DNA from: Nitrospirales bacterium
GTDB taxonomy: Bacteria > Nitrospirota > Nitrospiria > Nitrospirales > Nitrospiraceae
Assembly: GCA_040004695.1 (NCBI GenBank)
Contig: JBDUAJ010000001.1
Coordinates: 1 to 35,904, forward strand
Direction of reading: 5' to 3'
Length of the DNA: 35,904 nucleotides
A program made the translations under genes and the position numbers. Shown here piece by piece: positions 19,751 through 22,617 of this stretch. Under the pieces are notes generated by a model, which had not been told where the DNA came from, ran no database searches, and saw nothing but the letters and a program-made list of their open reading frames with translations. The first letter of the stretch is position 1. Every line of letters starts with the position of its first letter.

Positions 19751-20734
19751 ATGATGGAATTTCGGGCTCACAGGCATCCGTCGAAGGAACGATGCGAGCG
19801 CATGGCGGTCATGTCTCCCGCCAATCCGTTTATGACCGCGGCGTATCTGAACGCCCGCATGGCATTGGGAGGAGAATCGTTTATCCTGTCAGTCATGGAC
19901 GGAGAACGCATGAATGCCGCGGGTCCAGCACTCTTACGGTCCGGCTATCTGACGCGGTCCCTCGAAATCATGTCCGTACCGTTGTTACCTGAGCCTGACG
20001 TATTTTGGAGAGGTCTCCAAACCTGGTGCCGGGATAAGAGCGTGTCGCAAGTAGAGGTCAACAGCTTTAGCTCGGAACAGACCTGCATTCCCCCCTTGGA
20101 GGGAGAATATTATCGCCGCACACGATGCGAATATGTACTGGATCTTCGTGAGCAGACGCTATGGGAGCGTATGACTTCTAATCATCTGCGCAATGTCAAG
20201 CGGGCTCGAAAAGGCCAGGTGAGCGTCCACCGATCGAGGGAGGCTTCTGCGTGTCGCGTCCATGTCGACTTGATGGCCTTATCGATGACGCGCCGCCGTG
20301 TGCGGGGTGAGCAGGTGCCCGACCACATGACCAATCAGCTTGCTGAAGTGACGGCTCTGACTCAGCATGGAGCCGGGGAACTGTTTCAAGCAGTGGCCGA
20401 TGGACAGGTCGTCTCATCGATTCTCGTGCTGCTGTCAGAGCGGGGCGGGTACTACCATTCGGCCGGCACGAGTCCGGAGGGAATGGCCTGTGGCGCCTCG
20501 CATGTATTGGTCCACGACATTGCCGTCACGTTACAAGCCGAGGCGCGCTGGCAATTCAACCTCGGAGGCGTCAGTGAAGCAGGGTCGGGGCTGGAGCAGT
20601 TTAAACGAGGGTTCGGTGCACGGCGCATCGATCTGCAAGCCGTGCAGTGCTCGACCGCGACACGCGTGACGCGTTGGCTTGGGGCCGGGGCCACTATGCT
20701 TCGCCATGTGGCGTCTGCAGGAACCGTACGATGA
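19751..20734 (+). CDS. GNAT-fold FemAB-like acyl/aminoacyl transferase, paralog 2
   Basis: The C-terminal half (GELFQAVADGQVVSSILVLLSERGGYYHSAGTSPEGMACGASHVLVHDI...LEQFKRGFGA) resembles the FemAB-like acetyltransferase family (Pfam Acetyltransf_6). The start is uncertain (ATG 19751 or 19802). Confidence 0.6.
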   Translation: MMEFRAHRHPSKERCERMAVMSPANPFMTAAYLNARMALGGESFILSVMDGERMNAAGPALLRSGYLTRSLEIMSVPLLPEPDVFWRGLQTWCRDKSVSQVEVNSFSSEQTCIPPLEGEYYRRTRCEYVLDLREQTLWERMTSNHLRNVKRARKGQVSVHRSREASACRVHVDLMALSMTRRRVRGEQVPDHMTNQLAEVTALTQHGAGELFQAVADGQVVSSILVLLSERGGYYHSAGTSPEGMACGASHVLVHDIAVTLQAEARWQFNLGGVSEAGSGLEQFKRGFGARRIDLQAVQCSTATRVTRWLGAGATMLRHVASAGTVR

Positions 20735-22617
20735 ATCCCGTCCTCATTCTCGGCGACGAGCCCCGTATCGTCGTCAATATTGCCCGATCGCTCCACCGGC
20801 GCGGTGTGCCGGTGGATGTGGCGTCCACCTTGTCCGATGCTCCGGCTCTGCGGTCGAATGCCATTCGCCAGTGTCTGATGCTTCCTGATCCGAGGCGCGA
20901 GCCGGCGCTTAGTCATGCCGTCTTGTTCGAGTACATCTGCTCACATCACTACGATCAACTTATTCCAGCCAGTGACACGGCACTGGCTTTAGTGGCTGAC
21001 TATTATGCTGAATTATCCGAGCTGCTCCACGTCACCTGTCCACCGCCGGATATTGTGCAGCGCGTGTTGAAGAAAGCGCAGACGTTGCGTTTCGCGCAAG
21101 ACTGCGATGTGCCGATCCCAAAAGCGATCACGATCTTCTCGCTGAAGGAACTGGCTGACCGTGGCCCAAGCCTTGGATTTCCTGTGATTGCCAAGCCGTG
21201 CGGTAAAGGCCACCGGGAAACAGGGACGTTCAAGACACGCCGTTTCGAGACAATTGAACAATTGCAGGAGGCCTTCAGGGAGGATCCGAAGTTCGGGATC
21301 CATAATCTGATTCAAGAATACTGCCCCGGGGAGGGCATTGGGATCGAAGTCTTGATGCGTAGCGATCAGCCCTTGGTGCTGTTTCAGCATCGTCGGCTCA
21401 AAGAATTGCCGACCACCGGCGGGGTAAGCGTTCTGGCGATTGCAGAAGCGGTTGATCCGCTCTTAGGGGACTATGCGGTGCGGCTCCTGCGAGCCATGAA
21501 GTGGGAAGGCGTGGCGATGGTGGAGTTTCGCGTCGATAGAGCCGGTCGTCAGGTGGCCCTGATGGAAGTCAACGGTCGCTATTGGGGATCCTTGGGACTG
21601 TCGATCCTGGCCGGGGTGGATTTTCCCTGGTATGAGTGGCAGCTCGCTCACGGACAACATCCTGACACGAACGGTCACTACCGTATTGGCGTTTCGGCAC
21701 GATGGACCAGCGGGGCTATTCAGCGGATTTCTACCAGCAGCCAATGCGGACCGGACCGCGCCACGGTGTGGAGCCTTGGCCGAGAGCTGCTCGGATTCGC
21801 CCAGGATTGTCTGCCTCCCACGCGAGATCTTCTCTGGTCATTCAGCGATCCGCGTCCCGGCTTGCATGAGACTCTCGCCGCGGTCCGTGCGTCCGCTCGC
21901 GGTGTGGTGAAGAGCCTCGTGATGCCTCTTGTCCCAGAGGCGGTGTTGAGCATCCGGCGTCGAAGCCGAGCGTTGGGGACGCGAGCGCGGCGGATGTACG
22001 TATGGATGGCCATCCAGCGTAGGCTGAAGTTCCGATGCGATCGTTTACCGGACAGCTTGCCTCACATCCAATCGGTGTTGTTCGTGTGCCATGGCAATAT
22101 TCTCCGCAGCCCCATGGCCGCGGCTCTGTTTAAGCAGGCATCGGACGCATGCGGCCGCACGATAACGGTGCATTCGGCTGGTTTGCATGCCAATCCCTTC
22201 CATCCGGCCGATCCCCGAGGAGTGGCCGCCGCGGCCGAACTCGGCATCAGCTTATCAGCCCATCGCGCCGATCTACTCACACGTGAGATGGTTCGTCAAG
22301 CGGACGCAATTTTCGTCATGGATCAATTGAACGAGGCCGAACTTCTGGCTCGATATCCCCAGGCTCGCCCGAAACTGTTCTGTCTCAGCCTCTGCGACGC
22401 GGCCATGACGTCCTGTCTGGATATTCATGACCCGTACCATGGGAACATCGATGACGTCCGGCATTGCTATGAGACGATCCAGTCTTGCATCACGGGATTG
22501 GTCTCCAGGCTCACCGGCGACGTAGGAAACATGCACCTGAACAACGCGGTCTATGGCGGGCATCGGGAGATTCCCTTGGTCACCGAATCGAGGCCCGCAG
22601 GAAATCTGCGATCATGA
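20731..22617 (+). CDS. Fusion protein: N-terminal ATP-grasp ligase-like domain and C-terminal low-molecular-weight phosphotyrosine phosphatase
   Basis: ATGA overlap with the previous stop (20731-20734). ATP-grasp motifs are GFPVIAKP, IQEYCPGEGIGIEV and MVEFRVD...LMEVNGRYWGS. The PTP P-loop is VCHGNILRS (Cys codon 22087-22089). The general-acid Asp is in IHDPYHG (22429-22431). Confidence 0.8.
   Translation: MNPVLILGDEPRIVVNIARSLHRRGVPVDVASTLSDAPALRSNAIRQCLMLPDPRREPALSHAVLFEYICSHHYDQLIPASDTALALVADYYAELSELLHVTCPPPDIVQRVLKKAQTLRFAQDCDVPIPKAITIFSLKELADRGPSLGFPVIAKPCGKGHRETGTFKTRRFETIEQLQEAFREDPKFGIHNLIQEYCPGEGIGIEVLMRSDQPLVLFQHRRLKELPTTGGVSVLAIAEAVDPLLGDYAVRLLRAMKWEGVAMVEFRVDRAGRQVALMEVNGRYWGSLGLSILAGVDFPWYEWQLAHGQHPDTNGHYRIGVSARWTSGAIQRISTSSQCGPDRATVWSLGRELLGFAQDCLPPTRDLLWSFSDPRPGLHETLAAVRASARGVVKSLVMPLVPEAVLSIRRRSRALGTRARRMYVWMAIQRRLKFRCDRLPDSLPHIQSVLFVCHGNILRSPMAAALFKQASDACGRTITVHSAGLHANPFHPADPRGVAAAAELGISLSAHRADLLTREMVRQADAIFVMDQLNEAELLARYPQARPKLFCLSLCDAAMTSCLDIHDPYHGNIDDVRHCYETIQSCITGLVSRLTGDVGNMHLNNAVYGGHREIPLVTESRPAGNLRS

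Follow-up and report, generated by a model that had tools for sequence, protein, structure and literature searches.

Low-molecular-weight protein tyrosine phosphatases (LMW-PTPs) of the Wzb/AmsI/EpsP type are free-standing proteins of about 150 amino acids (aa), encoded beside wza and wzc in polysaccharide loci that carry a bacterial tyrosine kinase (BY-kinase). Here, we examine a gene from a Nitrospirales bacterium in which a phosphatase domain of this fold is instead fused, through an adaptor, to an ATP-grasp domain. The gene occupies positions 20731-22617 of a 35,904-nucleotide (nt) stretch of DNA (assembly GCA_040004695.1, contig JBDUAJ010000001.1, positions 1 to 35,904), hereafter called the window; it and the other window features described below lie on the plus strand unless stated otherwise. 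Like the Wzb/AmsI/EpsP-type enzymes, the phosphatase domain has the Cys-X5-Arg-Ser and Asp-Pro machinery and sits in a polysaccharide locus with a BY-kinase, and its profile E-values to AmsI (4d74) and Wzb (2fek) are ~5e-30 to 3e-29. Unlike them, it has no second P-loop cysteine, scores below the equivalog models, and is linked to a ligase rather than to a kinase.

Two described glycan systems resemble other aspects of the gene. In the HS:2 capsule of Campylobacter jejuni, Cj1438C uses ATP to attach ethanolamine phosphate as an amide, and the phosphatase Cj1435 must dephosphorylate that amide before polymerization goes on, so that a ligase and a phosphatase act as consecutive steps of one glycan-decoration pathway (PMC12409886). 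The reference list of that paper contains a title terming Cj1438C an ATP-dependent amidoligase and another that places Cj1435 among the HAD phosphatases and hence outside the LMW-PTPs (PMC12409886). The two C. jejuni proteins are unfused, and we treat them as an analogy and not as members of the same family. In the type B flagellin glycan of Clostridioides difficile, the FemAB-like CDR20291_0244 and the ATP-grasp protein CDR20291_0245 are encoded by adjacent genes; a CDR20291_0245 mutant lacks the terminal sulfonated peptidylamido sugar, and no CDR20291_0244 mutant could be made (PMC5207246). As with positions 19751-20734 and 20731-21735 of the window, a FemAB-like and an ATP-grasp gene stand side by side near glycosyltransferases. 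However, the C. difficile pair has no phosphatase domain and its target is a protein O-glycan, not an exopolysaccharide, making it a partial precedent. A preliminary description of the window knew of no account of an ATP-grasp and LMW-PTP architecture, and our full-text literature searches likewise found no paper describing one.

The gene is an uninterrupted open reading frame (ORF) of 628 aa plus stop, encoding in order an ATP-grasp domain, a helical adaptor, and an LMW-PTP domain. Its ATG shares the sequence ATGA (20731-20734) with the stop codon of an upstream FemAB-like gene, and its own stop codon shares ATGA (22614-22617) with the ATG of a downstream GT2 gene. The preliminary description had read a single unbroken 628-codon frame with two domains, and both the ORF and the domain search it had proposed, in which Pfam detects ATP-grasp and LMWPc domains above cut-off, agree. 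Every motif that it quoted (GFPVIAKP, IQEYCPGEGIGIEV, MVEFRVD, and LMEVNGRYWGS) is found in the translation, and the codons for Cys453 (22087-22089), Arg459 (22105-22107), and Asp567 (22429-22431) lie where it had placed them.

The ATP-grasp domain (aa 1-335; 20731-21735) comprises pre-ATP-grasp, central, and C-terminal subdomains as judged from Pfam, AlphaFold2, and Foldseek. Pfam matches ATPgrasp_Ter (PF15632) at aa 193-326 (E = 5e-10; 39.6 bits against a cut-off of 29.1) and CPSase_L_D2 at 23.2 bits (cut-off 19.8), and the domain is modeled with a predicted local distance difference test (pLDDT) score of 89. Lys155 in the AKP motif (codon 21193-21195), to which we assign a putative ATP-binding role by analogy, is kept in 207 of 213 fused and 30 of 32 solo homologs. 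The putative catalytic and Mg2+-binding region, assigned in the same manner, spans 21523-21579 and includes Glu265 (MVEF) together with Glu279, Asn281, and Arg283 (LMEVNGR), each present in at least 210 of the 213 fused homologs. In an alignment of 109 fused sequences (A1), Lys155, Gln195, His220, Arg222, Glu265, Glu279, Asn281, Gly282, and Arg283 are all invariant. Thus, a profile score above cut-off, a predicted three-subdomain fold, and the active-site residues all place this half in the ATP-grasp superfamily.

Within that superfamily, the closest sequence relatives are 2pn1 (E = 6e-11 in a PDB profile search) and PRK12767 (E = 1e-11). The PDB entry for 2pn1 bears only a generic carbamoyl-phosphate-synthase name and is therefore uninformative on substrate. 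With Foldseek, the N-terminal part of the model matches biotin carboxylases and the L-amino-acid ligase 3vot with probability 1.0, and 3vot is the closest structural relative among ligases, with a TM score of 0.65 normalized to the target. The matches to these relatives all fall below family cut-offs, and 2pn1/PRK12767 and 3vot are single-domain proteins, unlike the window fusion. We infer that the ATP-grasp half is a carboxylate-activating, amide-forming ligase.

The LMW-PTP domain (aa 446-598; 22066-22524) was delimited by Pfam and by profile matches to solved LMW-PTPs. The preliminary description had called it complete, as it indeed appears to be: the LMWPc (PF01451) match at aa 449-590 spans model positions 1-143 of 144 (E = 5e-28; 98.4 bits against 23.2). 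In sequence profiles it is about equally near the Thermus thermophilus LMW-PTP (2cwd), AmsI (4d74), Wzb (2fek), and YwlE, with E-values from 2e-30 to ~4e-28, and it scores far below the NCBIfam equivalog cut-offs of the Wzb/Etp models (NF007520, 52.9 against 243; NF008486, 61.5 against 247). The superfamily motif Cys-X5-Arg-(Ser/Thr) and the DP(Y) general acid are both present. The P-loop, C453-H-G-N-I-L-R459-S460 (22087-22110), supplies the putative nucleophilic Cys along with the Arg and Ser; across 221 phosphatase domains of the family, its Cys, Asn, Arg, and Ser are each found in all 221 and its Gly in 220. Position +4 of the loop is Ile in the window protein and in 201 of the 221 relatives. 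In the general-acid loop, Asp567-Pro568-Tyr569 (22429-22437), Asp and Pro are again found in 221 of 221 domains and Tyr in 168. Cys453, Gly455, Asn456, Arg459, Ser460, Asp567, and Pro568 are invariant in A1.

The second cysteine of the canonical CXGNXCRS loop is Leu458 in the window protein, as first noticed in the preliminary description, and its replacement proves to be family-wide: the position holds Cys in only 9 of the 221 domains, compared to Ile in 136, Met in 35, and Leu in 20. This second cysteine guards against oxidation and is dispensable for catalysis. The alignments indicate that both active sites are under strong purifying selection and that neither catalytic center of the bifunctional protein has been lost.

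Between the two domains lies an ordered helical adaptor (aa 336-445; 21736-22065; pLDDT mostly 84-94). A linker of about 90 aa had been described here; the linker exists, but it measures about 110 aa and, far from floppy, has four predicted helices (aa 346-359, 375-400, 403-412, and 417-431). Asp373 is invariant in A1, and Pro374 is near-invariant. The first half of the adaptor goes with the ATP-grasp domain, aa ~336-400 being retained in 29 of 36 solo ATP-grasp representatives. The second half goes with the phosphatase: free-standing copies keep it as an N-terminal extension of ~55-60 aa, which in the Acidobacteriota aligns with fusion aa ~395-445. Natural split points fall within the adaptor at about aa 398-402. 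The tail that follows the phosphatase (aa 599-628; 22525-22614) is unconserved, with mostly gaps in homologs, and is predicted to be disordered (pLDDT <50).

A structural model, another of the checks suggested beforehand, was obtained with AlphaFold2 using A1. The mean pLDDT is 89.2 and the predicted template modeling score 0.75, the latter consistent with a defined inter-domain arrangement. A PDB sequence search matched each domain only separately and gave no solved two-domain structure; with Foldseek against the PDB, ATP-grasp proteins alone were among the 50 matches listed.

The architecture recurs widely, as a census, also proposed at the outset, makes clear. A word-indexed search with the window protein gave 765 matches, and 119 of the best 120, which we inspected, contain both Pfam domains; most are ~600-630 aa long and 42-80% identical, the exception being a 351-aa fragment. 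In IMG, homologs are labeled [quoted passage not shown] and one comes from Candidatus (Ca.) Nitrospira bockiana. An exhaustive search of 50%-identity cluster representatives gave 1202 matches at E ≤ 1e-30. We parsed the best 150 with domain hidden Markov models built from an alignment of fused sequences: 114 contain ATP-grasp then LMW-PTP and 36 ATP-grasp only. In metagenomes, scanning confirmed at least 576 related stretches; we retrieved 80 loci, some from marine (TARA) or sediment contigs, and the lowest identity among them is 27%. Cultured Vibrio alfacsensis plasmids encode a 592-aa fused ortholog (WP_322805275.1) with 24.7% identity and both domains by Pfam, so that full-length homologs extend down to 24-27% identity. 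Across Nitrospirota, Acidobacteriota, Gammaproteobacteria, and a haloarchaeon, the phosphatase is either joined to this ATP-grasp or encoded right beside it. The preliminary description had raised the prospect that the architecture is common and already characterized; common it is, but we found no paper that characterizes it. The architecture is apparently abundant, machine-annotated, and uncharacterized in the literature we found. Some homologs are larger: P0059 (L014, 10001-12853) is a 950-aa triple fusion of ATP-grasp, LMW-PTP, and GT2; P0232 (1031 aa) has two ATP-grasp domains then one phosphatase; and P0227 is a 952-aa form.

We then compared how the two halves are arranged in 90 non-redundant related loci. 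They are fused in 57, while in 7 the phosphatase gene lies immediately upstream of the ATP-grasp gene, in 5 a phosphatase frame follows the ATP-grasp gene, and in 1 the phosphatase is one gene away. The other 20 have ATP-grasp only; part of these are contig-end truncations, and true solo ATP-grasps form their own clade. The reverse-order split is exemplified by an Acidobacteriota locus (L003), in which Pfam confirmed genes at 10001-10669 (222 aa) and 10666-11901 (411 aa) that overlap by 4 nt. On a Halobacterium zhouii plasmid, a phosphatase and then an ATP-grasp gene again overlap by 4 nt, and a GNAT gene precedes them. This pair lies in a glycan locus with flippase, deacetylase, dehydrogenase, oxidoreductase, DegT, acyltransferase, and WecB genes. 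In two loci (L069, 1-1792; L071, 9989-11776), a common TAG falls at an identical point of the adaptor, leaving the phosphatase in a reading frame of its own downstream, and in two others (L080 and L086) it is a separate downstream gene in the same order as in the fusion. These arrangements indicate that the two halves are under selection to stay together. We found no second, divergent LMW-PTP in any related locus searched.

A few loci show other variations. L044 (2-1648), which we counted with the loci whose phosphatase frame follows the ATP-grasp, is a point-mutated copy: TAA replaces the catalytic Glu codon of LMEVNGR, and the copy is for that reason probably a pseudogene or a sequencing error. 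Two loci (L023, 5051-5908; L031, 6943-7887) have an extra free-standing phosphatase of the same clade ~1.6 kb downstream of the fused gene, and L018 has a second ATP-grasp/phosphatase pair (11733-13537).

The tyrosine kinase, by comparison, is seldom nearby. Using an iterated profile built from the window kinase, we searched 56 non-redundant loci with at least 8 kb of flank and found a BY-kinase domain within ±10 kb in only 3 (L007, L008, and L011, the last frameshifted), a sampling that would barely miss a kinase spaced as in the window (9.9 kb) and that speaks of the locus and not of the whole genome. Wza was found in L007 only. With 3 of 56 loci, there is no conserved gene linkage to a BY-kinase of the wza-wzb-wzc type. 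Moreover, a survey of BY-kinases counted 796 homologs in bacteria and 0 in 117 archaeal genomes (PMC4007543), and a review too reports them absent from Archaea (PMC5007285). Because the split halves stay adjacent, the kinase is seldom near, and the pair occurs in an archaeon, the phosphatase seems to track the ATP-grasp ligase, not the kinase, family-wide.

The genes that do recur around the fusion are those of glycan synthesis. The neighbor profiles were seeded from window proteins and may miss divergent families, and PLSDB gene tables are incomplete; within these bounds, 28 of 35 well-flanked fused loci contain glycosyltransferases, and of 28 fused loci, 19 have a flippase, 18 a GT2, and 13 an Acetyltransf_6/FemAB-like gene. 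By profile search, a gene of this last type also lies no more than 3 kb away at all 6 split loci, and such genes stand beside solo forms as well. Orthologs of a toroid protein and of the second FemAB-like protein of the window, usually directly upstream of the fusion gene, occur in 12 of the 35 well-flanked fused loci. AsnB-type amidotransferases, sulfotransferases, and PIG-L or other deacetylases are further recurrent neighbors. Judged by this company, the fusion belongs to a portable, or mobile, glycan-tailoring gene cassette.

We propose that the gene encodes a bifunctional enzyme of this mobile glycan-decoration cassette. The ATP-grasp domain would activate a carboxylate as an acyl-phosphate and then form an amide bond, through which either a uronic acid would receive an amino acid or amine, or a de-N-acetylated amino sugar would receive an acid. 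Its target would be a cytoplasmic, lipid-linked or nucleotide-linked repeat-unit precursor, and it would work beside the translationally coupled FemAB-like transferase and GT2. The phosphatase, with Cys453, Arg459, and Asp567 as its presumed catalytic residues, would be docked on the ligase and catalyze one reaction of that pathway, most plausibly the removal of a phosphate from the ligase's substrate or product. The clearest precedent is the C. jejuni capsule pathway, in which ligation comes first and dephosphorylation second. We tentatively prefer this explanation, in which the phosphatase works inside the ligase pathway, over those considered below. In its specific form, the LMW-PTP would be a non-protein phosphatase whose reaction, a second catalytic step, hydrolyzes an aryl, acyl, or N-linked phosphate on the ligated substituent or intermediate; this we regard as possible but somewhat doubtful.

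Several observations weigh against such a role. LMW-PTPs hydrolyze aliphatic phosphate esters poorly, their main substrates being phosphotyrosine proteins and aryl phosphates, and the family retains a phosphotyrosine-type pocket signature in the Ile at +4 (201/221) and the DP-Tyr loop (168/221). We recognized no gene in the window that would supply a phosphorylated amine donor; the DegT protein is like ordinary nucleotide-sugar aminotransferases such as WbpE and therefore lends no support to such a supply. About a quarter of lineages have the ATP-grasp domain without a phosphatase, so the ligase chemistry does not always depend on one. Additionally, in three XrtA-type contexts (the window, Ca. 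Nitrospira bockiana, and the V. alfacsensis plasmid) a BY-kinase is present and no other LMW-PTP was seen, and the spacing in the window lies close to the ±10 kb limit of our kinase search.

The strongest alternative, first put forward in the preliminary description, fits these contexts. Here, the LMW-PTP would be the Wzb equivalent that dephosphorylates the C-terminal tyrosines of the BY-kinase, and its fusion would tether the ligase to the Wzc/Wzx/Wzy machinery or co-regulate the two. The candidate protein substrate in the window is an XrtA-type BY-kinase with a fused chain-length-determinant domain (8657-10870; Wzz, GNVR, and AAA_31 by Pfam). This kinase, to which the preliminary description had pointed, is real: it has Wzz, GNVR, and P-loop domains with the Walker A motif GEGKT, and QYYGRY occurs near its C-terminus, followed by AIAEPPPVL (C-terminal letters RHQYYGRYAIAEPPPVL). 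Its matches to the NCBIfam models TIGR03007 and TIGR03018 are both below cut-off. It lies upstream of the fusion gene, 9.9 kb away, in a co-directional cluster, and tblastn detected no second LMW-PTP in the 36-kb window, leaving the fused domain as the only one available to the kinase with its YYGRY tail. The same situation is found at the Ca. Nitrospira bockiana locus. In L007, a Wza/Wzz/BY-kinase set has a single LMW-PTP within 21 kb, namely the phosphatase adjacent to ATP-grasp, and in the XrtA region of V. alfacsensis, where the autokinase is 25.5 kb off, the 77 kb inspected contain no other annotated phosphatase. The domain itself has the full LMW-PTP catalytic set with a phosphotyrosine-type P-loop Ile and DP-Tyr, and the normal role of an LMW-PTP encoded in a polysaccharide locus is to dephosphorylate a BY-kinase.

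Against a kinase-directed role stand the Wzb and Etp equivalog scores, far under their cut-offs, and the gene arrangements: the phosphatase never adjoins the kinase and is always fused or adjacent to ATP-grasp, and just 3 of the 56 well-flanked loci have a BY-kinase in the surrounding ±10 kb. The pair also occurs in a haloarchaeon, while the surveys cited above found no BY-kinases in Archaea (PMC4007543, PMC5007285). A kinase-directed role therefore leaves both the family-wide linkage and the archaeal cassette unexplained. With respect to the lack of another phosphatase, we know of no dedicated phosphatase in the curated XrtA/PEP-CTERM gene set; if the set indeed has none, the lack of another one at the locus is weak evidence. 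Overall, we consider dephosphorylation of the kinase a possibility that falls short of being probable. The label "Wzb-type" in the preliminary description is apt insofar as the domain is the only LMW-PTP in an XrtA-type locus with a BY-kinase, but it is about as close to the T. thermophilus LMW-PTP, AmsI, and YwlE as to Wzb and far below the equivalog cut-offs. Likewise, the suggestion that the fusion couples a phosphotyrosine cycle to a decoration step is possible for XrtA-type loci but, given the linkage to the ligase, is not the best family-wide explanation. In XrtA-type loci, the domain may additionally or alternatively be a BY-kinase phosphatase, as the two roles are compatible and not mutually exclusive.

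The phosphatase could also act in cis, freeing the ligase or its partners (GNAT, GT2, flippase) of an inhibitory phosphate on tyrosine, or serve as a phosphotyrosine-binding docking module. BY-kinases do phosphorylate polysaccharide enzymes, such as Ugd and glycosyltransferases, and the ATP-grasp core contains two near-invariant tyrosines in A1, Tyr284 and Tyr317. Furthermore, the conserved helical adaptor that couples the domains is kept even in split genes. On the other hand, no tyrosine kinase of the BY type is known from the archaeal host (PMC5007285). The strict conservation of the full catalytic set favors turnover over binding alone, counting against a docking module in particular. We find action in cis unlikely.

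Two other activities of the LMW-PTP fold were also considered. A YwlE-type phosphoarginine phosphatase is disfavored by the P-loop, as such enzymes have Thr at position +4 (CxGNTCRS), where the window protein has Ile. An ArsC-type arsenate reductase or other redox enzyme is highly improbable. It is suggested by one homolog that NCBI names [quoted passage not shown] and by weak, sub-threshold matches to ArsC models, but TIGR02691 and NF010053 score only 28.6 against 174.3 and 32.9 against 215. Cys453 is the sole invariant cysteine, the only other conserved one being Cys579 in the last helix, so there are no conserved second and third cysteines for a redox relay. In addition, neither the Asp-Pro general acid nor the Ser that follows the Arg varies, a pattern typical of true phosphatases. 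Finally, although in-frame stops or frameshifts occur in a few related contigs (L040, L044), the census rules out a sequencing or assembly error that joined two genes, because the same unbroken architecture recurs in 57 independent loci, in 114 representatives, and on complete plasmids of cultured Vibrio, with an adaptor that is conserved and confidently folded in the prediction.

The family is a large, ancient clade of LMW-PTPs hard-wired to a presumed amide-forming ligase and persisting where a BY-kinase is neither near nor known. It is routine to annotate LMW-PTPs of polysaccharide loci as BY-kinase phosphatases, and for members of this clade such annotations may be wrong. An action on a glycan intermediate would be a new reaction type for the LMW-PTP fold and, to our knowledge, make this the first enzyme of that fold dedicated to polysaccharide chemistry. 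It would also define a portable cassette of GNAT, ATP-grasp, and phosphatase common to Bacteria and Archaea, and imply that the exopolysaccharides of Nitrospira, Acidobacteriota, and marine bacteria bear undiscovered amide-linked decorations that may be phosphorylated transiently. Should the kinase be the true target, the phosphotyrosine cycle would be physically linked by the fusion with repeat-unit tailoring. Because cultured carriers exist in V. alfacsensis (on plasmids) and H. zhouii, the question is testable.

By its gene content, the window locus is of the XrtA/PEP-CTERM exopolysaccharide type. Two XrtA equivalogs of NCBIfam score above cut-off, the TIGR03006 deacetylase (370 against 276) and the TIGR03019 FemAB protein (357 against 260), and two fall just under it, TIGR03013 (387 against 393) and TIGR03007 (267 against 279). 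No exosortase A gene was found among the window ORFs scanned, and it could sit beyond the window. The gene order begins with two Wza-like genes, the chain-length-determinant/BY-kinase, a dCache-GAF-PAS protein, and a LuxR-type response regulator. It continues with a priming phosphoglycosyltransferase, the XrtA deacetylase, the XrtA FemAB protein, a UDP-GlcNAc 2-epimerase, the toroid protein, the second FemAB-like GNAT, and the fusion gene. After the fusion gene come GT2, a Wzx-type flippase, an AsnB-type amidotransferase, GT4, DegT, and a Wzy-like protein, and the order ends with a methyltransferase, a hexapeptide acyltransferase, a third FemAB-like protein, and GT1. This locus is syntenic with the Ca. 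Nitrospira bockiana locus and with one from a Nitrospirota metagenome-assembled genome (MAG), which by itself makes an origin of the window in Nitrospirota very probable.

The immediate partners of the fusion gene were assigned by Pfam. Directly upstream is the FemAB-like GNAT (Acetyltransf_6; 19751-20734), preceded by the alpha/alpha-toroid protein (18556-19746), which has a weak SQHop_cyclase_C match; some of its orthologs have faint GH127 or pectate-lyase-like matches. The GT2 glycosyltransferase (22614-23525) follows downstream. The window contains three FemAB-like (Acetyltransf_6) paralogs in all (15900-17336, 19751-20734, and 32988-34133), of which only the first passes TIGR03019 and the third resembles FemX. 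Together, the three paralogs suggest a multi-residue aminoacyl or peptidyl decoration.

Some related loci have distinctive neighbors. Sulfotransferases recur beside the pair in Acidobacteriota-type loci (L003, 15239-16270; L013, 11894-12799; L046, 11269-12150), a hint of sulfated polysaccharides. In the solo ATP-grasp locus L006, an inositol-monophosphatase-family gene (12557-13375) lies beside ATP-grasp. We considered this gene as a substitute phosphatase and rejected it: the same Inositol_P family also occurs in phosphatase-bearing split loci with sulfotransferases, so it is not a replacement and is probably linked to sulfation. On the V. alfacsensis plasmid, whose fusion region contains xrtA and, 25.5 kb from the fusion gene, an XrtA-associated autokinase, genes for a cytidylyltransferase, a gamma-glutamyl hydrolase-like protein, and a PEP-utilizing enzyme adjoin one another (L098, 35245-39634; NZ_CP140104.1, 119244-123633), with cysDN genes near. 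We take this trio to resemble the O-methyl-phosphoramidate capsule genes Cj1416-1418 of C. jejuni.

Scans of the whole window for tRNA genes and Rfam families returned nothing. A region of ~1 kb (4141-5178) has no plus-strand ORF of at least 150 aa; its start is overlapped by two minus-strand ORFs at 3865-4452 and 3980-4561, which overlap each other and have no Pfam match. The two Wza-like genes (7225-7932 and 7929-8543; Poly_export and SLBB) are short, encoding 235 and 204 aa, with a 4-nt overlap; one might instead expect one full-length exporter of the outer membrane at this place. The 673-aa dCache-GAF-PAS protein (10984-13005), in which Pfam detects no histidine-kinase or other output domain, is encoded directly upstream of, and overlapping, the response-regulator gene. 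This LuxR-type regulator (12986-13660; counterparts at 2285-2956 in L001 and 3502-4134 in L008) shares 98% identity with the regulator of the Nitrospirota MAG locus and 96% with that of Ca. Nitrospira bockiana. All other proteins of the syntenic loci are 49-83% identical, making the regulator unusually constrained.

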